A stretch of DNA of 64,000 nt from contig CAZUXF010000003.1 in assembly GCA_964624535.1 (NCBI GenBank), positions 104,308 through 168,307 of the forward strand. Reading direction: 5' to 3'. Origin of the DNA: an uncultured Anaerolinea sp. (GTDB lineage Bacteria; Chloroflexota; Anaerolineae; Anaerolineales; Anaerolineaceae). Both the position numbers and the translations under genes were made by a program. The notes under the pieces are model-generated. The model had not been told where the DNA came from. It did not search any database and saw nothing but the letters and a program-made list of their open reading frames with translations. Of this stretch, positions 1-24,937 are shown one piece after another. The stretch's first letter is position 1, and every line of letters starts with the position of its first letter.

Positions 1-1113
1 GGGCATGATGACATGAGTATAATTTTCGTCACCCACAGGCTTGATCACGCCGGGCGTGTTGTTGGCGTTGGTTTCAAGCGCAACGTTGGGGGATTTAACC
101 ACATCCAAAACTTCGCGCAAGAATCGAACATTAAAGGCGATCAATAATCCGGTTCCTTCAATATTGGCTTCCATCTGAATGTCGCTTTTACCAGTCTCTT
201 CGGTGAGGGCGCTAATCTCAACTCTGCCAGCACCGTTCTCTTCGGGAATGACGTTCAAGCGCACCACATTATTGCCTTCTCGAGCGATGATCTCCGCTTG
301 TTTGCAAGCCTTTAAGAAGGCGGGAGTCGAAACCGTAGTGCGGGTCTTGTAATTGTGTGGGATGATGGCGCGGAAATCAGGGAAGTTGCCATCTATCAGT
401 TGTGAAACCAACTCAGCATCTTTGAGGTGGAAAATGACCTGCCCGCGGCCCTGGGGCACCACCATGGTAACCGCTTTATCGGTGTCGGTGGCGATGCGTG
501 CCAACTCGCTCATCGCCCGGGCGGGGATGATGATCGAGAAATTCTGGCTGACCGGGTTCGAAAGAAGTTCTTTGCGCACTGAAATGCGGAAACCATCTGT
601 GGCGGCCAGGGTGATCTGGTTGTCTTGTACTTCCATTTTCACGCCCTGCAAAACGGGTCGGGCTTCATCCGCGGAGGCGGCGAAAGCCACCTGTTGGATC
701 ATTTCCTTAAAATCGACGATGTTTAAGTCCACGCCTTCCGTCAGGTCAGGCACCGGGATGGGCGGGAAGTCTTGCGCATCAATACCCTTGATATCGTGAA
801 CCGAACTGTTGCAGACCAGGTTGATCGTCTGGGTGCGTGTGTCGAGCGTTAATTGAACATTTTCAGGGGGAAAGGTGCCCACCAGGTCAACCAGGGTTCG
901 AGCCGGAACGGTAACTGAGCCTTCTTCCTGGATCTGGGCCGGGATCCAGCAGGTTATGCCTAATTCAAGATTGGTGGCAGAAAGACGCAAACGACCTTCA
1001 TCGGTTGCCACAAGGACGTTGGCCAAAACAGGCAGGGTGCTGCGTGGAGAAACCGCGCGGCTTACCACGCCGAGTCCGTGTGCAAGATGTTGTTGGGTGA
1101 CTGTGGCTTTCAT
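1..1113 (-). CDS. dnaN: DNA polymerase III beta sliding clamp, C-terminal end cut by window edge
   Basis: Not in the ORF track because it runs off the edge. Reverse-strand ATG at 1113..1111 gives MKATVTQQHLAHGLGVVSRAVSPRSTLPVLANVLVATDEGRLRLSATNLELGI... The frame stays open to position 1 (...GVIKPVGDENYTHVIMP). Classic DnaN sequence. Confidence 0.9.
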   Translation of the reverse strand, partial: MKATVTQQHLAHGLGVVSRAVSPRSTLPVLANVLVATDEGRLRLSATNLELGITCWIPAQIQEEGSVTVPARTLVDLVGTFPPENVQLTLDTRTQTINLVCNSSVHDIKGIDAQDFPPIPVPDLTEGVDLNIVDFKEMIQQVAFAASADEARPVLQGVKMEVQDNQITLAATDGFRISVRKELLSNPVSQNFSIIIPARAMSELARIATDTDKAVTMVVPQGRGQVIFHLKDAELVSQLIDGNFPDFRAIIPHNYKTRTTVSTPAFLKACKQAEIIAREGNNVVRLNVIPEENGAGRVEISALTEETGKSDIQMEANIEGTGLLIAFNVRFLREVLDVVKSPNVALETNANNTPGVIKPVGDENYTHVIMP

Positions 1114-1249
1114 GGGCGCCCTCTTATAATTTCAACAATTTTTTATAGTATTAATGAGTATACAACGGACACCTAAAAAAAACCAGTCAACAAATCTCAA
1201 TCAGCGTTGGTAAACTATTGTACAATTTCCATTATCTGAAGGAGGAAAA

Positions 1250-2200
1250 ATGAGTCGTGAACCTGGTGTTTTTCAAAAAACCATCGACCTTTATTATGCA
1301 GGAAAAATCGAAGAAGCCTACGACTTGTTAACCCCTGTCGGTAACCGGTACCCCGATTGGACAGGTCGGGTTTATGAGATTCGTCTTGATCTGGCTGCGT
1401 TATTAGGGAAATTAGACCTGGCGGAAAATATTCTAGAGGAAGCGCTCTCAGAGGGTTTCTATTACGGTGAGAACGTCTTGCGTCTAGATACTGATGTTAA
1501 AGACCTGCAAGGCCGCGAACGCTATGAAGCCCTGGTGAAAAAAAGTCTCGGAATTCTGGCGGAAAATCAACAAATTAGCACGCCAGAAATGTTACTTTTG
1601 GAGCCAATGGTCGAAACCCACGGTCCGATCCCCTGGCTCATGGCGTTACATGGCAACAATTCCAACGCCGGCGCCATGCAGGAGTATTGGGATGGTTTGC
1701 GGCGACGAGGATGGTTGATTGCCCTGCCACAATCTTCACAACTAACAGCCCGAAACCAGTACGTTTGGAACGACATGCCCCTCGTGGAAAAAGAGATCGC
1801 GGCGCATGTTCGAACACTCGAAAATCAGTTTTCGCTGAGCAAACAGAAGGGATTGGTGGCGGGTTTTTCGAAGGGCGGTCACGCGGCGATCCACTGCGCA
1901 TTAAAGTCAATTGTCCCCATCAATGGTTTTCTCGGATTAGCTCCTTATTTTGCGGACCCGTCAGCGATCGCACCTTTGAGTACCGATGGAAATCGAACTT
2001 TATTGAAAGGTTACTTTTTGTTAGGAGAAAATGACCACGAGTGCAACCCAGGCGCCTTGAAACTAACCGAATTGCTGGCGGGAGTAGGGGTTGAGTGCGC
2101 CGTGGAGGTTGTCCCTAAAATCGCTCACTCGATTCCCGACGAAATGGATCCTTACATGAGCCGAGTCTGCAAATTCATTTTTGGTGAAGAATCGGAATGA
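1250..2200 (+). CDS. alpha/beta hydrolase (carboxylesterase/phospholipase-like) with helical N-terminal region
   Basis: 316-aa ORF with SD GGAGG upstream. Has a GFSKGG nucleophile-elbow-like motif and a C-terminal His typical of the dienelactone/carboxylesterase fold. Confidence 0.6.
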   Translation: MSREPGVFQKTIDLYYAGKIEEAYDLLTPVGNRYPDWTGRVYEIRLDLAALLGKLDLAENILEEALSEGFYYGENVLRLDTDVKDLQGRERYEALVKKSLGILAENQQISTPEMLLLEPMVETHGPIPWLMALHGNNSNAGAMQEYWDGLRRRGWLIALPQSSQLTARNQYVWNDMPLVEKEIAAHVRTLENQFSLSKQKGLVAGFSKGGHAAIHCALKSIVPINGFLGLAPYFADPSAIAPLSTDGNRTLLKGYFLLGENDHECNPGALKLTELLAGVGVECAVEVVPKIAHSIPDEMDPYMSRVCKFIFGEESE

Positions 2201-2781
2201 TGAAAAAGCCTTCACCCGACATCAAAGAGATCAAGATATTGCCCCTGACGCCAGAACGCTGGGTTGACTTGGAAACCTTGTTTGGTCCGAGCGGCGCGTG
2301 CATGGGTTGCTGGTGCATGTGGTGGCGGGTGCGCAATAAAGAATTCAACCTATTGGGACGCGAAGGGCTTAAAAATGGCCTCCGAACGCTCGTTCACCAG
2401 GGCGTGGAGGCCGGTTTGATCGCCTACGTGGATGGAATTCCGGCTGGATGGGTGACCATCGCGCCGCGCGCCGAGTATGTGCGCCTCGAAACCTCCAGGT
2501 TGCTCGCGCCGGTGGATGATCAGCCGGTATGGTCCATGCCGTGCTTTTTCGTTCACAAATCTTACCGGGGCAAGGGGTTGATGCGTGTCTTGATCCAGGG
2601 CGCGGTTGATTACGCGCGAACCCACGGCGCGAAGATCATTGAAGTGTATCCCTTCGAATCGCAGGGGCAAACCAGCACGATGAATATTTATACGGGCGTC
2701 GTTTCCGCGTTTCGCGACCTCGGGTTTGTCGAAGTGGAAAGAAGAAAATCCAACCGGCCCATTATGCGCAAGGATTTGTAA
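2197..2781 (+). CDS. GNAT family N-acetyltransferase
   Basis: 194 aa. ATGA overlap with the upstream gene. Contains an acetyl-CoA-binding-like segment (HKSYRGKGLMRVLIQGAVDYA). Confidence 0.65.
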   Translation: MMKKPSPDIKEIKILPLTPERWVDLETLFGPSGACMGCWCMWWRVRNKEFNLLGREGLKNGLRTLVHQGVEAGLIAYVDGIPAGWVTIAPRAEYVRLETSRLLAPVDDQPVWSMPCFFVHKSYRGKGLMRVLIQGAVDYARTHGAKIIEVYPFESQGQTSTMNIYTGVVSAFRDLGFVEVERRKSNRPIMRKDL

Positions 2782-2814
2782 TTTTTTCTCGAAATAATTA
2801 TTTATGTGAATAAT

Positions 2815-2850
2815 TAGAAGAAAAAACTCCCCGTGAAACCTCACGGGGAG
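2815..2850 (-). terminator. intrinsic terminator downstream of tRNA-Leu
   Basis: Perfect 10-bp stem CTCCCCGTGA/TCACGGGGAG (2827-2836/2841-2850) with a 4-nt loop, followed on the minus strand by a T6 run. Confidence 0.65.
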
Positions 2851-2868
2851 CGCATGTTATAATCTAGG

Positions 2869-2950
2869 TGCCGAAGGTGGGAATTGAACCCACACTCCTT
2901 ACGGAACACGATTTTGAGTCGTGCGCGTCTGCCAATTCCGCCACTCCGGC
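2869..2950 (-). tRNA. tRNA-Leu (anticodon CAA)
   Basis: Reverse complement GCCGGAGTGGCGGAATTGGCAGACGCGCACGACTCAAAATCGTGTTCCGTAAGGAGTGTGGGTTCAATTCCCACCTTCGGCA. Has a 7-bp acceptor stem, anticodon loop CTCAAAA, a long variable arm and a TTCAATT T-loop. Confidence 0.9.
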
Positions 2951-3001
2951 AATGCAAATCAGAGTATATCTGACATTTTAGCAAGGGTCAAGGGACTTTT
3001 T

Positions 3002-4069
3002 ATGAAACTAGGAATCATCGGACTGCCGCAATCTGGAAAAACAACCTTGTTCAACGCGCTCACTCGCGCCATGCAACCCACCGGCGTGACCGGCAAGATC
3101 GAAGTGCACACCGCCGTGGTGGACGTGCCCGATCCGCGCGTCGACAAGCTCTCCGCCATGTTCAACCCCAAGAAAACCATTTACACCAAGGTCACCTACG
3201 TTGACATCGCCGGCCTGGATGGGTCCGCGAGCAAGGGCGGTATTTCCGGCGCGCTGCTCAACCAGCTCACCCAGTTGGACGGATTCATCGAGGTGGTGCG
3301 CGTCTTCGAAGACGAAAACGTGATTCATATTAACGAAACGGTCGACCCGATTCGAGACGTACACGCGATGGACAGCGAATTTTTATTGAACGACTTGATC
3401 TCCGTCGAACGAAAGCTCGAACGGCTCAATGAAGAAGTCAAACGCCCCTTGGGTCGTGACAAGGAAGTAGTGGAACGTGAACTGGTTCTTTTCAACCGTT
3501 TCCATGAAACCCTTTCCAAAGACATCCCTCTGCGGGATATCGAGATCAGCGAATACGAAGACAAGATCCTTTCCGGTTTCGGTTTCTTGAGCCGCAAACC
3601 GCTCTTGATCGTGATGAACACTGCGGAAGGGCAACCCTCCCCGGCGTTGGAATACAACCACAAACACAGCAAGGTGGTTTCGTTGCAGGGCAAGCTTGAA
3701 ATGGATATCGCCCAGCTATCCGCCGAAGAAGCCGAGATATTTTTGGCGGAATACGGTATTGAAGAACCCAGCCTGAACCGGATGATCAAGCTCTCTTATG
3801 ACTTGCTCGGATTACAGTCTTTCTTCACCGTTGGACCGGACGAATGCCGGGCCTGGACAGTGCGCCGCGGCGCTCCAGCTCCTGAGGCTGCCGGCGAGAT
3901 TCACTCCGACCTGCAAAAAGGATTCATCCGTGCAGAGGTGGTTTCTTACGAAGACCTGATGAATTTGGGCGGCATGAACGAAGCCAAAGCCAAAGGCAGG
4001 CTACGTCTGGAAGGCAAAGAATACATCGTGCAGGATGGCGACATTCTCAACATCCGCTTCAACCTCTAA
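3002..4069 (+). CDS. ychF: redox-regulated ATPase YchF (Obg-like GTPase family)
   Basis: MKLGIIGLPQSGKTTLFNALT P-loop and a C-terminal TGS-like end (...FIRAEVVSYEDL...GKEYIVQDGDILNIRFNL). Start moved to ATG 3002, because the track's 2921 start overlaps tRNA-Leu. Confidence 0.9.
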   Translation: MKLGIIGLPQSGKTTLFNALTRAMQPTGVTGKIEVHTAVVDVPDPRVDKLSAMFNPKKTIYTKVTYVDIAGLDGSASKGGISGALLNQLTQLDGFIEVVRVFEDENVIHINETVDPIRDVHAMDSEFLLNDLISVERKLERLNEEVKRPLGRDKEVVERELVLFNRFHETLSKDIPLRDIEISEYEDKILSGFGFLSRKPLLIVMNTAEGQPSPALEYNHKHSKVVSLQGKLEMDIAQLSAEEAEIFLAEYGIEEPSLNRMIKLSYDLLGLQSFFTVGPDECRAWTVRRGAPAPEAAGEIHSDLQKGFIRAEVVSYEDLMNLGGMNEAKAKGRLRLEGKEYIVQDGDILNIRFNL

Positions 4070-4120
4070 TCTTGCTCCCGGCCTTGCCGGGAGTACGTTT
4101 ATCTGTAAAGGAGGAACATC

Positions 4121-5191
4121 ATGCCCGGCTTGTTTGACACCCTGACGATAAAGAGCATCACCCTGCGAAACCGCATCGGCGTCAGCCCAATGTGCCAGTA
4201 TAGCTACGAAGATGGTTTTTCAAACGACTGGCAGCTCATGCATTTGGGCGCCAGGGCGGTGGGCGGCGCGGGGTTGGTGATCGCCGAAGCTACGGCGGTG
4301 GAAGCGCGGGGACGTATCACGCCCTACGACGTGGGTATTTGGGACGACGACCACATCACACCTCTTAAACGAGTAACCAGCATTTTGCGATCGCAGGGTG
4401 CGGTGGCAGGCATCCAGATCGCGCACGCCGGTCGAAAAGCCTGTGTTGGCCGCCCCTGGCACGAAGACCGCGGCAAGCCGATCGTCAAAAAAGATTCGCG
4501 ATGGTGGCCAGCGATTGGGCCGAGCGACATCGCTTTTTCTGATGAACACCAGGTTCCGCATGAGATGACGCTAAGGGATATTCACGAAGTACAAAAGGCA
4601 TTTAAACAAGCAGCCCAACGTGCCGTGGAAGCCGGCTTCCAGTGGCTGGAGTTGCACGCCGCGCATGGGTACCTGCTGCACAGTTTTTATTCGCCCCTTT
4701 CCAACCACCGCACGGATGATTACGGAGGAAGTTTCGAAAACCGTATTCGCTTTTTGCTTGAAACTGTTTCACAAATTCAGACCGTGTGGCCTGAAGACTT
4801 ACCGCTAACCGTGCGACTTTCAGGCACCGATTGGATGGATGGGGGTTGGACCATAGAAGACACTGTTTCGCTATCAAAAATATTAAAAGTGAAAGGGGTC
4901 GACCTCATCGATTGTTCTTCAGGTGGAAATGTTTCGAACGCGAAGCTGCCTTTTGGACCGGGTTACCAGGTGCCCATCTCAGAAGCCGTTAGGCGGGATG
5001 CCAACATCGCAACAGCTACAGTGGGGTTGATCACCTCGCCCCAGCACGCGGACGCTATCATCCGCAATGGTCGCGCCGATATCGTCCTGCTTGGGCGTGA
5101 ATTTCTACGCAACGCTTATTGGCCCTTGCAAGCCGCAAAGGAATTGGGCGTCGAGATCCCGGTTCCGCCTCAATATCTGAGAGCTTTTTAG
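4121..5191 (+). CDS. namA: NADPH dehydrogenase / Old Yellow Enzyme, YqjM-type
   Basis: N-terminus ...LRNRIGVSPMCQYS... and HAAHGYLLHSFYSPLSNHRTDDYGGS, both hallmark OYE motifs. SD AGGAGG upstream. Confidence 0.85.
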   Translation: MPGLFDTLTIKSITLRNRIGVSPMCQYSYEDGFSNDWQLMHLGARAVGGAGLVIAEATAVEARGRITPYDVGIWDDDHITPLKRVTSILRSQGAVAGIQIAHAGRKACVGRPWHEDRGKPIVKKDSRWWPAIGPSDIAFSDEHQVPHEMTLRDIHEVQKAFKQAAQRAVEAGFQWLELHAAHGYLLHSFYSPLSNHRTDDYGGSFENRIRFLLETVSQIQTVWPEDLPLTVRLSGTDWMDGGWTIEDTVSLSKILKVKGVDLIDCSSGGNVSNAKLPFGPGYQVPISEAVRRDANIATATVGLITSPQHADAIIRNGRADIVLLGREFLRNAYWPLQAAKELGVEIPVPPQYLRAF

Positions 5192-6000
5192 TCCAAAATT
5201 CCAAACAGATTGGACAGGTTGTTCAGGTCGACACGAGAGGTGAGATCCAGGCTGAGTGGCGTGACCGATACCAATTTTGCCACTTTGAAGGTGTGTGTGT
5301 CTGTGGTCGGATCGTTGAGGTCTTCAGTATGTGGGGCCGGGCGAGCATCGATCTTGGCGGCTGCGCCATCAGTCTCAGGTTCTTTCAGGTAAGGAACAAA
5401 ATAAGGGTGTTTTCCCAGCCGGGTAACGCGCCATTCAGTCTGTGGGGTGGCGCGCGACGGGACATTCACATTTAAAGCCATGACGTCCGCGGGCATTTTC
5501 TTCTCAAGTAAGATCTTGGCAAAGCGCCTGGCAAAGATTGCCGCAGTGAAAAAATCCACTTCGTTGGAATAACCAAGATAATCTTCATTTTCAAGTTGAA
5601 TGGATACCGCCAGGGATGGAATTCCGTGCGAGGCGCCTTCGAGGGCCGCACCCACCGTGCCCGACATGGTGATATCTGTGGCAGGGTTTTCTCCGTAATT
5701 GATCGCTGAAACGACCAGGTCGGGTTTCTTCTTTAATATTCCAAAGATCCCATATTGAACAGATTGAGCAGGGGAACCACCCACGGCGTAGCACGTCCAT
5801 TCTTGATCGCCGATGGTCAACATCATCGGCTTGATCTCGCCATCCGACCAGGCCGGCACGCTGCGCCCGGCGCCGGAGTGCTGCTCGCGCGGCGCGGCCA
5901 CAGTGACGAAACCTATTTTGGAAAGTTCTTTTGCTGCCGCCCACAATCCAGGGGAGGAAATGCCGTCGTCGTTAGTTAGAAGGATTTGAGGTTTTGTCAT
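5188..6000 (-). CDS. surE: 5'/3'-nucleotidase SurE
   Basis: ILLTNDDGISSPGLWAAAKEL N-terminal SurE signature. 270 aa. Confidence 0.9.
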   Translation of the reverse strand: MTKPQILLTNDDGISSPGLWAAAKELSKIGFVTVAAPREQHSGAGRSVPAWSDGEIKPMMLTIGDQEWTCYAVGGSPAQSVQYGIFGILKKKPDLVVSAINYGENPATDITMSGTVGAALEGASHGIPSLAVSIQLENEDYLGYSNEVDFFTAAIFARRFAKILLEKKMPADVMALNVNVPSRATPQTEWRVTRLGKHPYFVPYLKEPETDGAAAKIDARPAPHTEDLNDPTTDTHTFKVAKLVSVTPLSLDLTSRVDLNNLSNLFGILD

Positions 6001-8426: not shown

Positions 8427-8687
8427 CTAAACAGGATCAACCACTAATTTGATGGCAGTTCTAACTTTGCCGTCAATCTCAACATCAACAAATTCCGGGT
8501 AACACAGTACTTTGATCCCATCTTCTTCCAGGTAGCCCTTGGCCAGCACGAGTGCTTTGACAGCTTGGTTGACTGCACCAGCTCCAATCGCCTGAATATC
8601 TGCGTGTTTGTGCTCACGCATGACACCCGCAATGGCCCCCGCAACAGCGGCTGTACGAGAATTGGCTTTGACCTTAATCACATCCAT
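8427..8687 (-). CDS. spoVS: SpoVS family protein (86 aa)
   Basis: MDVIKVKANSRTAAVAGAIAGVMREHKHADIQAIGAGAVNQAVKALV...RTAIKLVVDPV aligns along its whole length with B. subtilis SpoVS. Internal ATG 8687 has SD GGGAG, so the track's longer N-terminus is rejected. Confidence 0.85.
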   Translation of the reverse strand: MDVIKVKANSRTAAVAGAIAGVMREHKHADIQAIGAGAVNQAVKALVLAKGYLEEDGIKVLCYPEFVDVEIDGKVRTAIKLVVDPV

Positions 8688-8832
8688 GATATTCACTCCC
8701 TTCAGGATCAATGGTCCAACAGTAAGCCATGGGGGCAATTTGCCGAAATCTACCCCGATTGTACAAGAATTTAAGACCAGTTTCAATACATTCAAGGCAT
8801 TGCGGGAGCGTTGTCTATACGAGTGTGTGAGG

Positions 8833-9162
8833 ATTAACTTTCTTTATAAAGATAGATTAATTAATAGTAATGGCAGTAGGGGCTGTGGAAATGTGGATAA
8901 CTCGTCAAATTCCACACCTTCTTGGCAGATACACGGACCTTTCAGATAGATGCCCGAATATCCAGGGGTAGGAGGAGCAATTATCCTCCCCAAGCGTATG
9001 TTGAGAAACCCTGAAAATTAACGAGGGTTAAGTAAACGCTTGTAGTGCCTGTGGAAAATAACTTTTTTTCCACTGAATTATCCACAATGATGCAAGGCAT
9101 GGAAAACTCGTTTATCCACAATAAAGAGGGTGTTATCCACACAAAAAGTGAGGTTATCCACA
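8833..9162. other. candidate oriC / DnaA-box cluster with AT-rich unwinding tract
   Basis: Perfect TTATCCACA at 9078-9086, 9112-9120, 9133-9141 and 9154-9162, and in reverse orientation (TGTGGATAA) at 8892-8900. One-mismatch box TGTGGAAAA at 9050-9058. A roughly 40-nt almost pure A/T tract at 8833-8872. Confidence 0.6.
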
Positions 9163-9188: not shown

Positions 9189-10181
9189 TCAGCTTGAAAA
9201 GTGGTCAACGACCTCTTCCACGCGGTCAAGCGCGCTATCTAGCACTTCAAGTCTCGCGGGCAGGTGTTTACTTTCGAGGTGAAGTTCATGGCAAAGCGCT
9301 TGCCATTCTTTATATACAGGGTCGGCTTTAGGCAGCGCCGCCGCCACCATCGTCCACACATCCAGCAGGATCCAAACGGCCGCGGCTGGGCGTTCTTCCT
9401 TTAGACTGTGAATGGCTTTTTCGAAATAATTTCTCCGGTTGGGATGAATACTCGGCGGAAAGTTCGGCAGGTTCGCTAGTGAATCAAATGCCGCGCCTAG
9501 ACCGGTCATCCAAGGAGCCCAGTGTTCGTCAGTGACGTCTTCGCTGGTGAAAGCCTCGACCAGGTCACCAGTCAAATCTGACAACCCGGCTGCTGTGGCG
9601 CGAGCAGGCAGGTCAACAAACAAGCGGCGGAGGGTAAGCGGCATTCCGTTAAGTGTGACCGCGGCGTTGGCAGTAAAACGCACCACATCCAGCAACGCCA
9701 GGGTGCGTTTGATGCCTTGAGGAATTGTCCCGTCAACTAAAGCTTGCCAATTTTGCCTTGCCAATCCCAAAAACTTCTGACTTCTGCCGACCACATTGGC
9801 GGGCTGCCAATATTGTGAAACGGCGTTTGAGCGGGTAAGGTCAAACCAATGGGTCGAATCTTGTAAACTGAGAGATGCCGATTCCAGCGCGCCGCCGATC
9901 CAGGGGTCCAGGCGCAATTTCCGGGCTGGCGCAAACGATTCTTGTGTGTAATGTGCGATATCGAGATGCACGTCAGCGTTGATTCGCACGATCTCGCGTG
10001 GCACCATTACGGAGCGATCATGAACACACACCAGGTCGATGTCTGTGATCCCGCCAATGAAGGGTTCGTCATTTAATAGTGAACCGGTCAAATAGACACA
10101 AACCAAACCACGATCTTTTGCCGATAGTTTGGCCGCGTGTTCGCGGGCCAGGTTTAGCAGAATCTCTCGCGTAATGCGCAT
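9189..10181 (-). CDS. hypothetical protein with N-terminal nucleotidyltransferase-fold motif
   Basis: 330 aa. YLTGSLLNDEPFIGGITDIDLVCV fits the GS...DxD minimal NTase signature. The rest looks helical with no recognised domain. SD GGAG upstream. Sits 22 nt downstream of kinase 2, probably in the same operon. Confidence 0.45.
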   Translation of the reverse strand: MRITREILLNLAREHAAKLSAKDRGLVCVYLTGSLLNDEPFIGGITDIDLVCVHDRSVMVPREIVRINADVHLDIAHYTQESFAPARKLRLDPWIGGALESASLSLQDSTHWFDLTRSNAVSQYWQPANVVGRSQKFLGLARQNWQALVDGTIPQGIKRTLALLDVVRFTANAAVTLNGMPLTLRRLFVDLPARATAAGLSDLTGDLVEAFTSEDVTDEHWAPWMTGLGAAFDSLANLPNFPPSIHPNRRNYFEKAIHSLKEERPAAAVWILLDVWTMVAAALPKADPVYKEWQALCHELHLESKHLPARLEVLDSALDRVEEVVDHFSS

Positions 10182-10203
10182 GGCGCTCCGAATCTTAAAA
10201 CTT

Positions 10204-10839
10204 CTAATCTATGGGTAATTGAGGCTGCAACGGAGTTCGGCGCAAGGCTTCTTCGATGCGGGTTTCGATGGTATTAAAATCAGATGGCCGACCGACAAAA
10301 TCAAGGTCGTCGGTTTCGATGATCAACACCTTGCTGGAGTGCGAGGAACCCAGATAATAATCATCATACGACCGGTTTAACTGGTCAATGTAGTCGCGCT
10401 CCATGGAACGCTCATAGGGTCGGTCACGTTGGGCGATGCGTTGCATCAGGGTTTCGGTGGAGGCGCGCAGGTAAACCACCAGGTCTGGCGGCGTCACTTT
10501 TTCAGCCAGGGCTTCTTGCACGCTGTAGTACATGTCTAATTCGTCACCCTGTAAGTTAATCCGGGCGAATAAGGCGTCTTTTTCAAAGGTATAGTCGCTG
10601 ATCACAGCCTTTGCCACTTCAAGCCGCTCGTTGATGTTACGGCGCTGTTGATGGTAGCGGCTGAGCAAGAAGAAGATCTGCGTTTGGAAGGCAAACCGAG
10701 CGCGGTCCGAATAGAAATTACTTAAGAAGGGGTTTTCTTCAAAAACTTCGAGGACCAGATCCGCCTCAAAGGAAGACTGCAGCATCCTGGCGAGGGTGGT
10801 TTTTCCGACCCCGATGACACCTTCAATGGAAAAATACAT
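10204..10839 (-). CDS. deoxynucleoside kinase (dCK/dGK family), second paralog
   Basis: MYFSIEGVIGVGKTTLARML P-loop and the same family architecture as 7716..8372. Extended -10 TGGTATATT upstream on the minus strand at 10896-10904. Confidence 0.8.
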   Translation of the reverse strand: MYFSIEGVIGVGKTTLARMLQSSFEADLVLEVFEENPFLSNFYSDRARFAFQTQIFFLLSRYHQQRRNINERLEVAKAVISDYTFEKDALFARINLQGDELDMYYSVQEALAEKVTPPDLVVYLRASTETLMQRIAQRDRPYERSMERDYIDQLNRSYDDYYLGSSHSSKVLIIETDDLDFVGRPSDFNTIETRIEEALRRTPLQPQLPID

Positions 10840-10949
10840 CTTTGGCTGACTCCAACCGGTTTTCCGGCATGTTGATGGGATTTATTGATATTGAAAATAT
10901 ACCATAAATTAAAAGATGCGATTGACCAGTGAAATTGAAACCCGGCGGT

Positions 10950-11486
10950 TTATTCCCAAGGCCAGAGTTGGCCGCTCTGGTTGACGAACGGGATGATGGC
11001 ATCCAGGGTGGGAAGCGGGCTGCCCAAGCCGGTCATCACGATCGAAAGTTCGCCGCGGTGATGGGTGGAATGGATGAAGGCTTGGGTTAAGAGCTGCCAA
11101 CGCGCCAACTTGAAAGGCTGCCCGCCTATAGGAATTTCTACTATCTCAAGCAGTTTTTCGTCGGTAACCCAACTTAAATATCTCTTCCGTTCCTCCGCAA
11201 CTTGTTCAAATGCCAGGGCAATTTCGGTCAAATTCAACTGTTTATTTGGTGTGTCCTTGGGGTTGACCGGTTTGCCTTCGCAGCGCGCCAAAAAGAAGAA
11301 TTCTGTGGTCAACATGTGCGTCAACAACGCTTGAACTGATCCGTGACTGGGGCTGGAAGGCGCGCAGAAGTCGGTTTCGCTTAACCTCGCGGCGCTTTGC
11401 AGTACAAGATTATTGGCGTGACTGTTGTAATCTTGCAGTACGAGCAGGGCAGATTTATTCATGATTTCCATGAGGCTCTCCATCAC
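10950..11486 (-). CDS. DinB family protein
   Basis: 178 aa with spaced His residues (…THMLTTE…, HSTHHRGEL) typical of the DinB/YfiT four-helix-bundle family. Confidence 0.65.
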   Translation of the reverse strand: MMESLMEIMNKSALLVLQDYNSHANNLVLQSAARLSETDFCAPSSPSHGSVQALLTHMLTTEFFFLARCEGKPVNPKDTPNKQLNLTEIALAFEQVAEERKRYLSWVTDEKLLEIVEIPIGGQPFKLARWQLLTQAFIHSTHHRGELSIVMTGLGSPLPTLDAIIPFVNQSGQLWPWE

Positions 11487-11529
11487 ACGGGATCATCTTC
11501 ATAATAAAAATATTTCAGTCAGGGGAGTC

Positions 11530-11562
11530 AAAAAATGACAACCCCCGGAGATAATCCGGGGG
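11530..11562 (-). terminator. intrinsic terminator after pepF
   Basis: Stem CCCCCGGA/TCCGGGGG followed on the minus strand by TTGTCATTTTTT. Confidence 0.55.
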
Positions 11563-11573
11563 CTGAAAAGCGA

Positions 11574-13346
11574 TTAACGACTGAGTTTTTCCAGCTGGTC
11601 GACCAGGGCGTTCAACACATCGAAGCCGCCTTGCCAGAAGGAAGCCTTGGTCACATCGACACCGGCATCTTTAAGGACTTGCATTGGTGCCACAGAGCCG
11701 CCCGCTGTCAGCAGTTGGATGTATTTGGGCTTAAAGGATTCGCCCTCGGTTTTGAATTGTTTGTAGAGTGAAAGCACGAGGAGTTGCCCGAAGGCGTAGG
11801 CGTAAACATAGAAAGGCACCTGGAAGATGTGCGGAATGGACACCCATTCCCACTTAAATTCGTCGGCTACTTCCACTGCGTCACCAAACTGTTTCTTCAA
11901 GTTTTTCAGGTACGCTTCAGAAACTTCGTCCACTGAGGCGCCGTCGACGATCATTTGATGGGCTTCCTTTTCAAACAAAGCGAAGAATGATTGGCGCAGG
12001 ATGGTGGCGTAGGAATCGTCCATCTGCCTGAAGAGCAGGTCACGTTTGACGGCTTCGTCTGTCTCTTCGACCAAGAGGCGGTCCACCAGCATCATCTCAC
12101 CAAACGTGCTGGCGGTCTCTGCCAGGGGCAGGCAGGCGTGTTGGGTGAAGAGGGTGTGCTTGTCAGCCAGCATCGAGTGGATGGCGTGACCCAATTCGTG
12201 GGCCATCGTGGCCACATCGTCGGTTTTTCCCTGGTAGTTAAGTAGCACCCAGGGGGTCATCTCTGGCACGACGGTGGCGCAGAAGGCTCCGCCGCGCTTG
12301 CCCTTGCGAACCTCGGCGTCAAGATGGTCTTGCTCGAAAACGCGATGAGCCAGTTCTGCAAAATGAGGATCAAACTCGGTGAAACTTTCCAACACTTTTT
12401 TGGCGGCTTTTTCGTAGGGATAAGCTTTGTCTGCTTTGGCAATCGGCGCGTAAATGTCGTAGCGGCGCAATTTTTCCATGCCCAGCAGATTGGCTTTGAG
12501 TTTGAAAAAGCGCTGGAAGACATCGGCGTTCTTATCGGCGGTGGTAAGGAGCAAATCGATCACCGTGTCGGGCAAGTCGTTGGCCAGGTTACGCGCCGAA
12601 ATGGGACTTGAAAAGTGGCGCATCACGATCTCTTCATTACGCCAGTCGCGCACGATGGTCTGGTACATCTGACCCAGAATGTCGCCGTCCTCGCCGTAGA
12701 CACGGTAGAGTTCCTGGTAGGCGCGGGCGCGCAAGTCAGGGTCGGAGCCGCGCACCAGGCTCATCAACTCGCCACGGGTCAACTCTTTGACCTCGCCATC
12801 CACTTCGACCTTAAACACATAGCGGTTGGTGATGGAATCATAGAGGGTGGTCAGGGCGTTGATGCCGGTCACGTTTTTGGTGTTGATGATCTTTTCTTCG
12901 GGTTCACTGAGGGTGTGCTTCTTAAAGTGGCGCATCTCTTCAAGCCAGTAGCGGTAATCCCCAGAGTTTTTCATCAGGCGTTCGGCGGCCGCGTCCGGCA
13001 GGGCTTTCCACCATAAGCCGAAGAATAGCGTTCGATTCTGGATCTCGGATTGTTGTTGTTCGGTTTTGGCTACGAGGGTCAATGCGCCCTGGTTTTGGGT
13101 ATCTTCAGCAAACATCAATCCGGCGTAACTTCCCATGCGGTGCGCCAGGCGGTAAATTCCTTCCAACGCCTGGATAATCTTGAGAAAATCGACTTCACTG
13201 ATACCTTCCTGGAGAAGTGGGCGAAATTTCTCAAATTCTTCTGATAATTTCTCGATGGACTTGAAGTCTTTGTCAAAATCCTTTTCAGATGGATATAGGT
13301 CAGAAAGACTCCAGCGTTTTTGGGTAAATTCGCTCGTTTTTGTCAT
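11574..13346 (-). CDS. pepF: oligoendopeptidase F (M3B family)
   Basis: 590 aa with the HELGHAIH zinc-binding motif. Length and layout typical of M3B. Confidence 0.85.
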   Translation of the reverse strand: MTKTSEFTQKRWSLSDLYPSEKDFDKDFKSIEKLSEEFEKFRPLLQEGISEVDFLKIIQALEGIYRLAHRMGSYAGLMFAEDTQNQGALTLVAKTEQQQSEIQNRTLFFGLWWKALPDAAAERLMKNSGDYRYWLEEMRHFKKHTLSEPEEKIINTKNVTGINALTTLYDSITNRYVFKVEVDGEVKELTRGELMSLVRGSDPDLRARAYQELYRVYGEDGDILGQMYQTIVRDWRNEEIVMRHFSSPISARNLANDLPDTVIDLLLTTADKNADVFQRFFKLKANLLGMEKLRRYDIYAPIAKADKAYPYEKAAKKVLESFTEFDPHFAELAHRVFEQDHLDAEVRKGKRGGAFCATVVPEMTPWVLLNYQGKTDDVATMAHELGHAIHSMLADKHTLFTQHACLPLAETASTFGEMMLVDRLLVEETDEAVKRDLLFRQMDDSYATILRQSFFALFEKEAHQMIVDGASVDEVSEAYLKNLKKQFGDAVEVADEFKWEWVSIPHIFQVPFYVYAYAFGQLLVLSLYKQFKTEGESFKPKYIQLLTAGGSVAPMQVLKDAGVDVTKASFWQGGFDVLNALVDQLEKLSR

Positions 13347-13445
13347 GGCATCCTCAGAAATTTTTTTAATAGTATGCGTTTCCCGGACGGTTTACCGCCT
13401 TGCGATGATTATACCCCGGCGCAAAAACTCTCGCGCGAGTAGCGT

Positions 13446-14231
13446 TCAGGATCGAAAGGCGGCGTGGATCTTGTCCATCAAGGCGGCGTGGACCCCGGGG
13501 GCTGCAACCACCATGTCGAAGGGAGGTTTAAAGAAATCAAGCTCACCCCGCAGATTCGTGACGGTTGCACCAGCCTCCAGGCAGATCAATGCCCCCGCGG
13601 CGATGTCCCATGAGTTGATGCTCATCTCCCAATAACCGTCAAATCGTCCGCAAGCCACATAGCAGATCACGATGGCTGCGGACCCCAGGCGCACCACCCC
13701 TTGGGTGTTAAGCGTCAAATCCCCAAAAAGAGCCAGGTGGCGCACATACGTTTCATCATGATGGTGTGGAAACCCCGTGGAGAGCAGGCTCTTTTGTAAC
13801 TCGCTGGTTTGTGTAACATGAATGGATTCGCTATTCAACCAGGCGCCCTTGCCGCGCTCAGCCGCGAAACATTCGTCGCGCGATGGGTCGTAGACCACAC
13901 CCAACTGCAACTCACCATTTTTCTCATAGGCGATCGAAACCGCGTAAATAGGCACACGGTGGCTGTAATTCACCGTGCCATCCAGGGGGTCGATGTGCCA
14001 GCGGTGAGCCGGGTCGCCAGCGACGATGCCGGTTTCTTCGGTGATGATGGCGTGGGTCGGGAAGAATTCCTTGATTCGCGACATGAGCAAGGCTTCGCAG
14101 GTATGGTCCACTTCAGTGACCACATCTGTTGCGCCTTTATAACCGATGGTATGTTCCGCCAGAAAGCCTTCCCTCGCGATCTTGCCGGCTGCCTTGGCCC
14201 ATTCAATCACCTGGTTCAGAGTGGGTTCCAT
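13446..14231 (-). CDS. inositol monophosphatase family protein
   Basis: WHIDPLDGTVNY and WDIAAG motifs. Confidence 0.8.
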   Translation of the reverse strand: MEPTLNQVIEWAKAAGKIAREGFLAEHTIGYKGATDVVTEVDHTCEALLMSRIKEFFPTHAIITEETGIVAGDPAHRWHIDPLDGTVNYSHRVPIYAVSIAYEKNGELQLGVVYDPSRDECFAAERGKGAWLNSESIHVTQTSELQKSLLSTGFPHHHDETYVRHLALFGDLTLNTQGVVRLGSAAIVICYVACGRFDGYWEMSINSWDIAAGALICLEAGATVTNLRGELDFFKPPFDMVVAAPGVHAALMDKIHAAFRS

Positions 14232-14233
14232 TT

Positions 14234-14869
14234 TTATCGCTCCCCGTTGATCTCGGCGATCAACTGTTCAAAAAAACGATCCAGGTAGGCACTGCGTCCA
14301 CGGGCTAAATCCTTTGCGGTTTGGGTGAAAAGTTTGGCTTCGATCTTTTTAAGTTTGAAAAGGTGCTCGTGGTAGGCGCTGTGGAGTTCACCCTCCAACT
14401 CTTTACCGGTTTGGAGGAATTGTTGGGACGGTTCGGCATAAAAGGGAGTTCTAGCCAGGGCGGCATAAACCATCACACGGACGGCACCGATGGCGCCCAG
14501 CACATCCAGTTTATCGGCATCAAAAATACATTTCGCTTCGATACTTTCGGGAGGTTCCTGGTCGCCTCTGAACCGATGCGCGCGGATGCAATGCTGCACG
14601 GCTTTAACCCGCTCCATTGGCCAACCTTCATCTTTAAGGATCCTGCCGGCAAATTCTGACGAGCGCAGGTGATGCTCGAGGCGGGCATCGCTGCCCGGGG
14701 TGGTGCCGTCCGCGTCGTGGAGCAGGGCGGCGGCGCACACGATCTCGAGGTCGGCGCCTTCGGCTTCGGCGAGCCTTTCGGCCATGCGGTAGACCCGCTC
14801 AATGTGTGAAAAATCGTGTACGGCATCGACGTTTTGATACCATTCTTTGGCGCGTTCAAGGGTCAGCAT
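14234..14869 (-). CDS. HD domain phosphohydrolase
   Basis: H...HD (AALLHDADG) metal-binding motif. 211 aa. Sits immediately upstream of the IMPase gene. Confidence 0.7.
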   Translation of the reverse strand: MLTLERAKEWYQNVDAVHDFSHIERVYRMAERLAEAEGADLEIVCAAALLHDADGTTPGSDARLEHHLRSSEFAGRILKDEGWPMERVKAVQHCIRAHRFRGDQEPPESIEAKCIFDADKLDVLGAIGAVRVMVYAALARTPFYAEPSQQFLQTGKELEGELHSAYHEHLFKLKKIEAKLFTQTAKDLARGRSAYLDRFFEQLIAEINGER

Positions 14870-14898
14870 ATTACTCCATACAAAATTAGGATTTTGCC

Positions 14899-16152
14899 TT
14901 ATTGGATCGGAAAAACCTCACCTTTTTTGATCACCGTTTTAACGAGGTTGCTGCCAAAACGGTAAGCCAGGTGGCGGTAATCCGCGACATCCAGAATTAA
15001 AAGGTCAGCCTGCTTGCCGACCTCGATCGATCCTACATTCGTGTGCTGGCGGATGGCGTAAGCCGCGTTGATCGTAGCCGCGGCAAGCGCCTGTGCGGGA
15101 GTGAGTTTGAGGTAGCGGCAAGCCAGGGCGATGACGAACTGCATGCTTTCACACCAGGCCGTGCCGGGGTTCAGGTCGGTGGCTATGGCGAGGAAGCCAT
15201 CCGCGGAGAGCATCTCTTTGGCGGGTGAATAATGGGCTTCGGCAAGCCCAAAGGGTGTGCAAGGCAGCGAGACGATGACCGTTTCTGACGCGCCCAACGC
15301 GCGGATCTCCTCTGGTGAGGTTTTGACGGCGTGATCGACCGAAACCGCGCCCAATCCACATGCCAGGTCAGCCCCACCCAGATTCTCAAATTCGTCCACG
15401 TGTGCCTTGATCGGAAAACCCAACGCTTTAGCAGTGGTGAGAATTTGACGGGTTTGTTCCAGCGTGAACGCACCTTTTTCGCAAAAAACATCCACGAAGG
15501 GCAGGGGTTTGGAGGTAGCGTTGCTTTGCGACCAGCGCAACACGGCTGGCAACATCTCGTCGCAGACGATTCGGGTGTATTCGTCACCGCGACCCTGGTA
15601 TTCGGCCGGCACGGCATGAGCGCCTAGAAAAGTAGGTGCGATCTCGAGCGGACCCTCATCACCGAGCTGAAGCAGGGTTTCGAGTTGCCGGATCTCAGCG
15701 TTTAATTCCAGGCCGTATCCGCTCTTGGCTTCTGCAGAGGTTGTGCCGTGCGCGAACATGCGCTTGGCGCGCTCGCGGGTTTCTTCCATTAATGTAGATT
15801 GGCTCGCGGCGCGCGTTGCCTGCACGGTGGATTGGATGCCCCCACCCGTTGCCATGATCTCAAGATAAGTCATTCCTTGCAGCCGCATCTCAAATTCCGC
15901 GGCGCGGTCGCCTGCCCAAACCAGATGGGTATGCGGGTCAACGAACCCAGGCAAAACGGCTTTTCCCCCGGCATCCAGGCGGTCTTCGTTGGGGTGGCGA
16001 GTGAGCAGATCGGGCGTCGACCCTGTTTCCACGATCCGACCTTCGCGGATGAGCACCGCCCCGTTGGACAGGATCCCTAAATCCCCCAGGCGGCTGCCGC
16101 GTTGTGGCCCTCCTGCCAGGGTGATCAGTTGCGATGCGGAATGGATCAGCAT
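14899..16152 (-). CDS. hutI: imidazolonepropionase-like amidohydrolase
   Basis: PGFVDPHTHLVWAGDRAAEFEMRLQG and the downstream His/Asp pattern match HutI. No other hut genes are present in the window. Confidence 0.75.
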   Translation of the reverse strand: MLIHSASQLITLAGGPQRGSRLGDLGILSNGAVLIREGRIVETGSTPDLLTRHPNEDRLDAGGKAVLPGFVDPHTHLVWAGDRAAEFEMRLQGMTYLEIMATGGGIQSTVQATRAASQSTLMEETRERAKRMFAHGTTSAEAKSGYGLELNAEIRQLETLLQLGDEGPLEIAPTFLGAHAVPAEYQGRGDEYTRIVCDEMLPAVLRWSQSNATSKPLPFVDVFCEKGAFTLEQTRQILTTAKALGFPIKAHVDEFENLGGADLACGLGAVSVDHAVKTSPEEIRALGASETVIVSLPCTPFGLAEAHYSPAKEMLSADGFLAIATDLNPGTAWCESMQFVIALACRYLKLTPAQALAAATINAAYAIRQHTNVGSIEVGKQADLLILDVADYRHLAYRFGSNLVKTVIKKGEVFPIQ

Positions 16153-16226
16153 ACGACCTCCATAACCAGTTTCTTTCTTTCGAGATTAGTATACCTGACA
16201 GCGCCCCATGAGATCAGAAGAGGGGG

Positions 16227-17402
16227 TTAATCCTGGACGTGTTGTGGGAGTTTAATCCGTTTCAACAGAAAGAGCGCCACCAGGTCGAGTGCCAGGCAAG
16301 AGAGCGCGTTGATGAAAATTCCGCCCTGGTATAACCACGGACCCAGCAGATCGCCAAATGCCCGGCCAAGCGAGAGTGAAGCGATGAACAGAGCCATCAT
16401 CGTCGCCCGGGTTTTGGGCATGACCTCGGTAACCAGGGGCAGGGCGCTGATGATCGCCACTTCAAAAGTCAGGTAAAAGATGAACAACCAGGCGAACGCA
16501 CCAAATTGGGTTTTGCCTAGCAGCGGCAGGGTGAGCATAGCCCCGCCATTCACCAGTAAACCAATGGTGATGGAGCGTTCCTTGCCGAGATGGTCGGCCA
16601 TCCAGGCCGCGAGGCCTTCGCCTCCGAGTTCGGAAAGGCCAATCACCACGGACGCCGCACCCAGCGCCGCGATCTGCAGTCCATAGGCGTCTTGCATCCA
16701 AACACCGAAAACAACATTGACCAATTCGTTGCCGAGAATGAAAGTCATCCCCATGGCCATGGCTATCAGGGCAGGAGCGTAGGTCAAAACATTCTTAATG
16801 TCCGCGAAGATGGTGATAGGTTCAGGCTTCTCAGGTTTGTCGTTGGGGACGAACCACCAGATCATAAGTGTCATAATCGAGCCAGCGATGAGCAGGGCGA
16901 TAAACGGACCATTCCAAAGTGATTTTCCAAGAATCAATCCTGCCAGGGGAACGAGCAGAATAAACGAGAGTGCCCAAGAAAGCTCGATCACGGCCATATA
17001 GAAACCGCGTTTTTTATATGGGGTGTGGTCGCCAAGGTAAGCCTGCATGGCGGGGAGCATCACATTGTTCCCCAGGTTGCCGGCGATGATGGCGATAAAA
17101 AAAGTCAACAGGTTGGGGAAAAGACTCGCCGCGAGCATACCCGCGAGGAAAATACCCATCCCGGAGAGCATGCCCACTTTTCGACCGCGCTGGTCGGCAA
17201 TTGGCGCGAGGAAGGGACCAAGCGCGCTGGTGGCCATGGAGACCGCCATGGCAAGCGATATGGTGCCAATCTCCACGTTCAACCCGCCGGCGAAGACCGC
17301 CAGGAAGGGATAAACCATGCGTGATGATGTGTTGACTACCATCCGGGATAGTGTAAAAATGGACAAACGTACGTTTAATGAAGTCTGCACTTGAATCCCC
17401 AA
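16227..17402 (-). CDS. MFS transporter
   Basis: 391 aa with about 12 hydrophobic segments. TTG start; alternative ATG at 17342. Confidence 0.75.
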   Translation of the reverse strand: MGIQVQTSLNVRLSIFTLSRMVVNTSSRMVYPFLAVFAGGLNVEIGTISLAMAVSMATSALGPFLAPIADQRGRKVGMLSGMGIFLAGMLAASLFPNLLTFFIAIIAGNLGNNVMLPAMQAYLGDHTPYKKRGFYMAVIELSWALSFILLVPLAGLILGKSLWNGPFIALLIAGSIMTLMIWWFVPNDKPEKPEPITIFADIKNVLTYAPALIAMAMGMTFILGNELVNVVFGVWMQDAYGLQIAALGAASVVIGLSELGGEGLAAWMADHLGKERSITIGLLVNGGAMLTLPLLGKTQFGAFAWLFIFYLTFEVAIISALPLVTEVMPKTRATMMALFIASLSLGRAFGDLLGPWLYQGGIFINALSCLALDLVALFLLKRIKLPQHVQD

Positions 17403-17416
17403 AAAAAACGGAATTG

Positions 17417-17448
17417 TAAAAAAAATTCTCCCGGTTGACCGGGAGAAT
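17417..17448 (-). terminator. strong intrinsic terminator after the 85-aa ORF
   Basis: 10-bp stem ATTCTCCCGG/CCGGGAGAAT with loop TTGA, followed on the minus strand by a T8 run. Confidence 0.75.
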
Positions 17449-17464
17449 AATTGTTTATGTGTAT

Positions 17465-17722
17465 TTATTCAATGGTCTTGATCGGCCGTTCGGGTAAATT
17501 ATGAAAATGAACCACTTGCCGGTTGAAGGCGCTCACCCTGCTGATACGTTTCAGCCAATCCAGTTCTTCATCAAGGATATTGTGGCTGAAGTCATGTTCG
17601 CTGACGGCGATAAATTCGCCTGAAGCCACGTCTTGAAACAAGGCGTCGCCCCAATCGACACAAATGGTCCCGTCTTTAAGTACGATAACCCACTGCCGGT
17701 TTACCGGAGTTCCGCTGGACAT
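17465..17722 (-). CDS. hypothetical protein (85 aa)
   Basis: ORF with SD GGTGGA 6 nt upstream. Lies between the Rrf2 regulator gene and a strong terminator. No recognisable domain. Confidence 0.45.
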   Translation of the reverse strand: MSSGTPVNRQWVIVLKDGTICVDWGDALFQDVASGEFIAVSEHDFSHNILDEELDWLKRISRVSAFNRQVVHFHNLPERPIKTIE

Positions 17723-17783
17723 ACGTTTCCACCTACTCTTGGTCGTCGACCTTTTTGCTAATTCTACCCCGGCTGGCCCGAAA

Positions 17784-18185
17784 TTAAAGAGACACCAGGC
17801 TGCTGAAGGTTGTTTTTCGCAGTTTGTTTACCAGGTCTGCCTGTGTTTCGCACCAGATCTTGTGCATCGGGCAGTCATCTGAGAATTCGCACATTTCGGG
17901 CGAGATGGTGCATTCGTTGAGAGAAATCGGCCCGTCGATGGCTTCCACAACTTCAAGAAGCGAAATAGCGGACGCAGGTTTGGGCAATGCCACGCCACCC
18001 CGGGCTCCGCGTGAGGTGGTGATCAAACCCGCGATGTTTAATTGGGAAATGATCTTGGCCAAAAAAGAGGGTGGTATCTTCTGGACTTCTGCGATCTGGC
18101 TGGTGGCAGCCCTCTGTCCAAATTCAAGTTTGGCTAGATAGAGCATGGCCCGAACGGCATAATCAGCTTGCCTGGTAATCTGCAT
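17784..18185 (-). CDS. Rrf2 family transcriptional regulator (three C-terminal Cys)
   Basis: MQITRQADYAVRAMLYLA... winged-helix N-terminus and a CTISPEMCEFSDDCP cysteine cluster, suggesting an Fe-S-binding IscR/NsrR-like protein. Confidence 0.85.
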   Translation of the reverse strand: MQITRQADYAVRAMLYLAKLEFGQRAATSQIAEVQKIPPSFLAKIISQLNIAGLITTSRGARGGVALPKPASAISLLEVVEAIDGPISLNECTISPEMCEFSDDCPMHKIWCETQADLVNKLRKTTFSSLVSL

Positions 18186-24659: not shown

Positions 24660-24937
24660 GCTACAGACACATCATTTCGAATCAACTTCATCGAAAGAAA
24701 GGTTTTCAAATGCAATTGGAAGAGTCGGGTAACGCCAAAGACGTGCCTCCCCTTAGTTGCCGGGGATTTTTAGCGTTATCCACATTCATCGCAGACAGGG
24801 TCGTGTTGTCTGGTCATAAAAGGCGAACCAACCGCAGTTTTCAACGCGGTATGGATGCGCGTAAAGCCAGGCTCGAAGGCTCTCATGAGGTACCAGTCTG
24901 ATCAATTAAGTTGATCATCTTCGGCATGGAAACCCCG
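24660..24937 (+). promoter_or_regulatory. long structured 5' leader; possible Mg2+-responsive (M-box-like) riboswitch aptamer
   Basis: Multiple local helices. Islands reminiscent of M-box conserved segments occur in the right order: GGAAGAGTC 24718, CCAAAGACG 24735, CATAAAAGGCGA 24815, AAGGCTCTCATG 24876. My by-eye alignment is not conclusive. Confidence 0.35.

Follow-up and report, generated by a model that had tools for sequence, protein, structure and literature searches.

Where does chromosome replication begin in a bacterium whose dnaA gene has no DnaA boxes beside it? The question is raised by a dense group of DnaA boxes in the genome of an uncultured Anaerolinea sp. The window, by which we mean the whole 64,000-nt stretch of DNA that was analysed, is C3:104308-168307 of this organism's own genome (G000), a 2.76-Mb draft in 40 contigs that is 97% complete. 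Between spoVS and a nucleotidyltransferase-like gene for a protein of 330 aa, here ORF330, there is a gap of 500 bp, 59% A+T, in which an initial annotation saw a candidate oriC uncoupled from dnaA and dnaN. The follow-up analysis supports that reading: the box cluster is unique, an accompanying DnaA-trio module is conserved, the skew switches of relatives coincide with it or lie near it, a parS pair is nearby, and dnaA is boxless. We think it very probable that the segment 8833-9162 is the chromosomal replication origin, oriC. If so, an origin would be placed for a class that is uncultured and environmentally abundant. To our knowledge there is no experimental study of Anaerolineae origins, and a literature search for origins of Anaerolineae or Chloroflexi found no specific paper.

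How unusual is the cluster? The perfect box, TTATCCACA, occurs seven times in the window where 0.36 occurrences are expected, and none of 100 shuffles reached seven. Five of the seven fall within 270 bp, and a recount agreed exactly with the positions and orientations first given for them: one at 8892-8900 on the minus strand, and four on the plus strand, starting at 9078, 9112, 9133 and 9154. These four direct boxes form a distal array (9078-9162), the last three members of which are spaced by 21 bp; the array lies 186-262 bp from an inverted pair of boxes at the left end of the cluster, and has the opposite orientation. When up to two mismatches are allowed, 12 boxes are found between 8828 and 9186, a span of ~360 bp, and weaker boxes are among them, at 8884 (minus strand, two mismatches), 9050-9058 (minus strand, one mismatch) and 9066-9074 (plus strand, two mismatches). 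The claim that the only other perfect copy in the window is at 24776 did not survive the recount, as there is a further one at 19657. Both are isolated boxes, in the 19648-19665 region and at 24776-24784; one is inside a coding sequence, beside an inverted box with two mismatches, and the other is in the leader of an MgtE-like/Nramp operon.

The draft as a whole has 36 perfect boxes, and the spoVS-ORF330 locus is the only place where more than one is found within 500 bp. It is also the sole intergenic DnaA-box cluster of the 2.76-Mb draft; the draft being incomplete, at 97% in 40 contigs, these uniqueness counts apply to the assembled contigs. A rival locus with a stronger cluster, for example at dnaA, would have told against the proposal, and a search of the draft found none. 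Secondary clusters of near-consensus boxes, all of which are inside coding sequences, were examined and set aside (C32, C6, C3:189 kb, C12, C10:54 kb and C1:210 kb).

The left end of the cluster is of particular interest. An AT-rich tract at 8833-8864 on the plus strand is the presumed DNA unwinding element, and a T/A-rich block is found at the same place in 14 of 14 loci in a box-anchored alignment, which comprises 12 loci of the genus, a further genus member and a locus from another family. The 40-mer 8833-8872 had been described as nearly pure A/T, which is an overstatement at 85% (34/40); its candidacy as the unwinding element stands, as no other 40-mer of the spacer is less stable, and it is in the top 0.03% of the window at the sequence level. 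DnaA-trios of the 3'-GAT-5' type, 5'-TAA TAG TAA TGG CAG TAG-3', occupy 8862-8879 of the plus strand. Read from the box outward they are TAG CAG TGG TAA TAG TAA, and the middle A is present in five of the six. Across the 14 loci the trio consensus is TAG-TAR-TMG-TCG-TAG with the 3-nt phase kept, and in 12-13 of them TAG is the trio that adjoins the GC spacer. The GC spacer, GGGC at 8880-8883 on the plus strand, separates the trios from the boxes, and is G/T-G-G-C in 10-13 of the 14 loci. Next are two tandem DnaA boxes on the minus strand: a weak, trio-proximal box, ATTTCCACA, at 8884-8892, which has two mismatches and reads TGTGGAAA on the plus strand, and a perfect, trio-distal consensus box at 8892-8900, which reads TGTGGATAA on the plus strand and is 12 bp from the first trio. 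The two boxes have one base in common, so that they are offset by 8 nt, and this offset is kept in 13 of the 14 loci. The same overlap is kept across the class, as seen in the window (8884-8900) and 44 class genomes.

How does this arrangement compare with known basal unwinding systems (BUS)? The published search rules ask for a box with at most two mismatches and, no more than 16 bp from it, three or more NAN trios. In published examples the 3'-GAT-5' trio is the commonest, especially next to the box; the spacer between box and trios peaks at 10-13 bp, with a GC spacer that averages 4 bp; and where there are tandem boxes, the one far from the trios is usually nearer the consensus, with a gap of up to 3 bp between the boxes. 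In the window, 12 bp separate the trios from the perfect box at 8892-8900, five trios of the TAG type are in phase, with 3'-GAT-5' favoured and the strongest trios near the box, and the trio-far member of the tandem pair is the one nearer the consensus, with the GGGC as a short GC-rich gap. The strand polarity of the trios agrees with that of the C. difficile trio sequence (PMC7561715). Judged by its architecture, the cluster has at its left end a complete predicted basal unwinding system.

The incC part of the B. subtilis oriC consists of DnaA boxes 6/7, a GC cluster, DnaA-trios and an AT-rich 27-mer (Richardson 2016/2019, Pelliciari 2021). The window resembles incC in the order and polarity of its elements, in having 3'-GAT-5' trios that are strongest near the boxes, in having the consensus box on the side far from the trios, in its 12-bp spacer, which falls within the 10-13 bp peak, and in having distal boxes a few hundred bp away. 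In B. subtilis the distal boxes are required, and can act from as far as several hundred bp away, whichever way they are oriented, with helical phasing. There are also differences from B. subtilis. The candidate origin in the window is not flanked by dnaA and dnaN, and it is a single spacer rather than a bipartite structure around dnaA. Its tandem boxes overlap, whereas the published rules allow a gap of up to 3 bp.

The mnmG-mioC gap of the E. coli chromosome, which holds oriC and is likewise away from dnaA, was also checked. There, TAGGATCGCACTGCCC-TGTGGATAA (R1) comes after the 13-mer region, and R2 and R4 have the opposite orientation. The strand polarity of the module in the window is also that of the E. 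coli DUE and R1. The two loci share an AT-rich element, TAG-containing trios, a GC-rich stretch and the TGTGGATAA box, and just as R1 is inverted relative to R2 and R4, the pair near the unwinding element of the window is inverted relative to the far direct boxes. The E. coli oriC differs from the window in lineage and in neighbouring genes. Unlike E. coli, the window has no GATC/13-mer repeats and no evident IHF site, and in place of a mixture of high- and low-affinity sites it has four perfect direct boxes with 21-bp spacing.

What might happen at such a site? The mechanism is predicted to be an ordinary one, of the basal-unwinding-system type. DnaA-ATP would bind at the tandem pair (8884-8900) and at the four direct boxes of high affinity (9078-9162), and the pair would direct a DnaA filament leftward onto the plus-strand trios (8862-8879). 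The filament would stretch and open the AT-rich tract at 8833-8864, where helicase would be loaded and bidirectional replication begun. The distal array probably aids by looping or oligomerisation, as do the right half of the E. coli oriC and, in B. subtilis, the distal boxes of incC. We infer DnaA binding, unwinding and origin firing from the architecture, the conservation, the uniqueness and the position of the locus relative to the skew of relatives.

Is the arrangement preserved in related organisms? Among loci fetched from relatives in the genus, 10 of 11 have a comparable box cluster in the spoVS-ORF330 gap, and at the ORF330 end of the spacer the relatives have arrays of two to four direct boxes with a spacing of 20-22 bp. 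Within the gap the AT tract, the trios and the box pair are still detected by BLAST, and these elements, along with the GC spacer, are the best-conserved part of the spacer. A strict core pattern, TAG-N4-TGKGGAWW-WGKGGANAR, has 46 matches in 44 of 301 class genomes, or about one per genome among the 44 that match, and the reversed control has two. In a member of another family (G024), the same two-part module is found between unrelated genes, 20 kb from spoVS, so that it is the module that is conserved and not its neighbours. These results would extend the DnaA-trio unwinding module to the Chloroflexota, with unusually clean conservation.

The genes next to the spacer are as had been proposed, spoVS on the left and a gene with a nucleotidyltransferase-like product on the right. 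spoVS (8427-8688, minus strand; Pfam PF04232, E 4e-34) is transcribed away from the origin, and a promoter scan found a promoter-like sequence for it, TTGAAA-17-TACAAT, at 8758-8786, ~50 bp from the AT tract; this sequence block is also kept in relatives. ORF330 (9189-10181, minus strand) ends 27 bp from the last DnaA box. Its product has no Pfam or NCBIfam match. There are more than 687 homologues in the Chloroflexota, mostly unnamed, with the labels Anaerolineaceae or Chloroflexi. The organism is accordingly no Firmicute, even though it has spoVS. The predicted model of the ORF330 protein has a pLDDT of 86, and its top PDB folds are ANT(4') nucleotidyltransferases (E 9e-4, TM 0.36-0.44). A GS...DxD motif is conserved in ORF330. 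In the genus, the gene always adjoins the origin and always lies downstream of one for a deoxynucleoside kinase. Genes for such kinases, two in all, are found on both sides of the spacer here, outside spoVS and ORF330. An Rfam scan of the spacer gave no match.

The initial annotation had stressed the distance of the cluster from the genes that often mark an origin, and correctly so. The dnaN gene (1-1113, minus strand; TIGR00663, 303 bits), the only one of the genome, ends 7.7 kb from the box cluster and has no dnaA beside it; the gene upstream of it is instead a divergent alpha/beta-hydrolase-like gene. The window lacks dnaA, which is on contig C10 between a gene for an FAD oxidoreductase and that for RNase J, and no DnaA boxes are found in the 464-bp gap upstream of it or in the 290-bp gap downstream. 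The boxless state of the upstream gap counts against a classical dnaA autoregulation in the lineage. The same 464-bp gap (L006:9375-9839, in C10 of G000) is AT-rich. Synteny with a relative would put dnaA about 180-200 kb from the candidate origin in G000. Because dnaA is elsewhere and without boxes, the origin and the initiator gene are uncoupled, as they are across the class, and the position of the origin is lineage-specific, with only a loose linkage to dnaN.

Two complete genomes of relatives also have no boxes at dnaA. The first (G238; 2.57 Mb, same family) has dnaA at 0.2-1.5 kb, at a distance of 165 kb from the cluster; no box is closer to this dnaA than 58 kb, and 7 kb separate dnaN from the cluster. 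This genome has a single cluster of at least three perfect boxes, and another perfect pair at 189.9 kb. In the second (G274; 4.69 Mb), three of the 10 perfect boxes are at the module, which is its only cluster of at least three, and no boxes are found at a divergent dnaN-dnaA pair 702 kb from the module. Sequence deposits that begin with dnaA at position 1 would therefore misplace the origin, by 165 kb in one complete relative and by 700 kb in another. This is of relevance to coverage-based estimates of growth rate (peak-to-trough), to skew-based checks of assemblies and to origin databases.

The draft has only two perfect parS sites (TGTTTCACGTGAAACA), at C3:100683 and 100718, 35 bp apart. 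The pair (C3:100683-100733) is 12.5 kb from the cluster and ~3.6 kb to the left of window position 1. In four relatives, parS pairs are found 25-44 kb from the homologous site. The parS sites and parAB are also uncoupled, since parB is on another contig (C15). In G000 the parS pair sits in a gap between two plus-strand genes.

Does strand composition place an origin at the cluster? Third codon positions throughout the genome are strongly C-rich on the coding strand, with a skew of about -0.12. Because this coding-strand bias swamps the raw replication signal, we used GC3 skew corrected for gene strand, on the basis of our own, rather crude, gene calls. Raw GC skew and gene-strand bias were tried on the window's own contig and proved uninformative, the coding bias being dominant and gene orientation being untied to replication. 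The clearest replication landmark of the draft is at C1:208.7 kb, where corrected GC3 skew switches sharply from +0.10 to -0.07. This is a sign change of the terminus type, and the site was rejected as an origin on that account. On the two sides of this switch, the share of plus-strand genes is 57% versus 54%, so gene orientation is nearly independent of replication direction. It had been cautioned that the ~9 kb to the right of the cluster are all minus-strand genes, which would be head-on to a rightward fork. Every gene from 9189 to 18185 is indeed on the minus strand; given that gene orientation is untied to replication direction, the caveat carries little weight.

The skew of the contig itself is the weak point of the oriC reading, as there is no clean minimum at the site. 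To the left of the site, corrected GC3 skew is -0.007 +/- 0.010; to the right it is +0.024 +/- 0.020 in the next 17 kb, then -0.048 +/- 0.015 at 130-178 kb and +0.061 +/- 0.014 beyond 178 kb. The best change point falls 65 kb further right than the site. The change point at C3:~178 kb, outside the window, is of the origin type; the genome box scan found no box cluster near it. Might rearrangement be responsible? Gene order near the site differs among three species of the genus (G000, G001 and G016), and relative to G001 the segment C3:73.6-109.5 kb, which includes window 1-5200 and carries dnaN, is inverted, with a breakpoint ~3 kb from the origin, next to the cluster. Such an inversion and other rearrangements can blur the skew of the left arm; they do not fully account for the pattern. 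The 130-178 kb block (window 25700-64000 and beyond) is collinear with G001, yet its skew is significantly negative here and positive there, and because of this collinearity the sign of the block is not accounted for by rearrangement.

Relatives give a clearer picture. In G016 the raw cumulative minimum is at 281.0 kb and the homologous site at 281.2-281.4 kb; in G007 the minimum is at 63.0 kb and the site at 62.5-63.0 kb. The 787-kb contig of G001 has a single V with its minimum at 103-123 kb, and the cluster, by far the strongest of the contig, is at 132 kb; dnaA of this genome, at 316 kb, is inside a region of uniformly positive skew. In G024, of the other family, the switch is at 287-290 kb and the module at 307 kb. 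The distance from switch to site is therefore close to zero (within 1 kb) for G016 and G007, and 10-30 kb for G001 and G024. Among six more distant genomes of the class, five give a skew signal that is weak or ambiguous locally, in the +/-60-80 kb around the module. The sixth is the complete G238, where the signal was seen only when the whole chromosome was sampled: the 14 samples (14/14) from the site to ~1370 kb are mostly positive and none is below -0.005, and the skew is negative at 1490-2330 kb. The point opposite the terminus is at ~143 kb in this chromosome, and the cluster is at 166.4-166.7 kb.

Could the cluster have some other function? One might propose a locus for DnaA titration or reactivation, which buffers free DnaA while the true origin is elsewhere, in the manner of E. 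coli datA/DARS or the DnaA-box clusters (DBCs) of B. subtilis. In datA and the DBCs, too, a number of consensus boxes are packed into a few hundred bp with no linkage to dnaA. A group of such boxes as dense as this one, remote from dnaA and on a contig without a clean skew minimum at the site, is in keeping with such a function. So are the extra box pairs of relatives (G001 at 497.8 kb, G238 at 189.9 kb), from which it follows that non-origin DnaA sites do exist in the group. We nevertheless regard a titration locus as improbable. Phased trios, a GC spacer and an AT tract are not needed for titration, yet they are what is best conserved in the spacer; neither G000 nor the two complete relatives has an alternative origin cluster; and it is here, not elsewhere, that relatives have their skew switches. 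In contrast to datA and the DBCs, the window cluster has a trio/unwinding module, is the sole cluster of its genome, and is at the skew switch in relatives.

Nucleotide-supply genes are among those that DnaA regulates in model bacteria, and as deoxynucleoside kinase genes bracket the spacer and the spoVS promoter-like site is close to the AT tract, it might be argued that the cluster is not an origin at all, and is instead a DnaA-dependent operator for spoVS and/or the flanking kinase and ORF330 genes. It would be surprising if this were so. The four perfect boxes are at the 3' end of ORF330, which is not a promoter position. The module is not tied to these genes, since in G024 it is found among unrelated ones 20 kb from spoVS. 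The trios and the skew would be left unexplained, and an operator role could in any case coexist with origin function. As for a chance build-up of box-like words, the AT-richer composition of the spacer speaks for it and nothing else does; the shuffles (0/100), with the retention of the arrangement across the genus and of the core module across the class, leave this notion almost no credibility, and conservation refutes it. An origin of replication remains the reading that we favour.

Is there any sign that the putative origin responds to the supply of DNA precursors? NrdR is a dATP/ATP-sensing repressor of ribonucleotide reductase, and G000 encodes it. A scan with the canonical NrdR consensus (ACACWATATATWGTGT) gave no good matches genome-wide, so a position weight matrix (PWM) of our own was needed, and was built solely from three boxes upstream of the G000 ribonucleotide reductase gene. 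These three NrdR-type palindromes, at C30:13842, 13993 and 14024 (span 13842-14039), are of a lineage variant, CCnCCATATATGGnGG. In the published NrdR operator two boxes of 16 bp, in which C4, A6, A8, T9, T11 and G13 are conserved, are separated by 15-16 bp (PMC13584703). The C30 palindromes keep five or six of these six key positions, and two of them, 31 bp apart, have the published layout.

A degenerate NrdR-type palindrome, CCCGAATATCCAGGGG, is found in the window at 8953-8968, +61 from the consensus DnaA box, with a PWM score of 10.9; 82 positions in the whole genome score at least as high. It keeps four of the six key positions, C4 and T11 being lost, and the place where a partner would be expected, 8922-8937, scores 1.3 and is unrecognisable as a box, so that the two-box layout of an operator is absent from the window. 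In eight relatives, boxes at +59 to +61 from the consensus DnaA box score 11.5-17.4 and keep five or six of the six key positions, and four relatives have a weaker partner at +29/30. Seven class genomes have the full 6/6 core at the same offset from the module, against ~0.05 expected. The NrdR-type boxes at a fixed offset inside the putative origin are, from this pattern, a real feature of the lineage, of which the window copy is a decayed example. One tentative proposal, about which we have considerable doubt, is that Anaerolineae origins, bracketed as they also are by two deoxynucleoside kinase genes, carry NrdR sites, at +60 bp and more weakly at +30, and that initiation would thereby be gated directly by the DNA-precursor pool if NrdR binds them. 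As the boxes are decayed in G000, such a coupling of NrdR to initiation may be lost or weakened here. The recurrence of an NrdR-type box in the origin offers a testable lead on coupling between dNTP supply and initiation; in relatives, as in several other families, these boxes stand out clearly.
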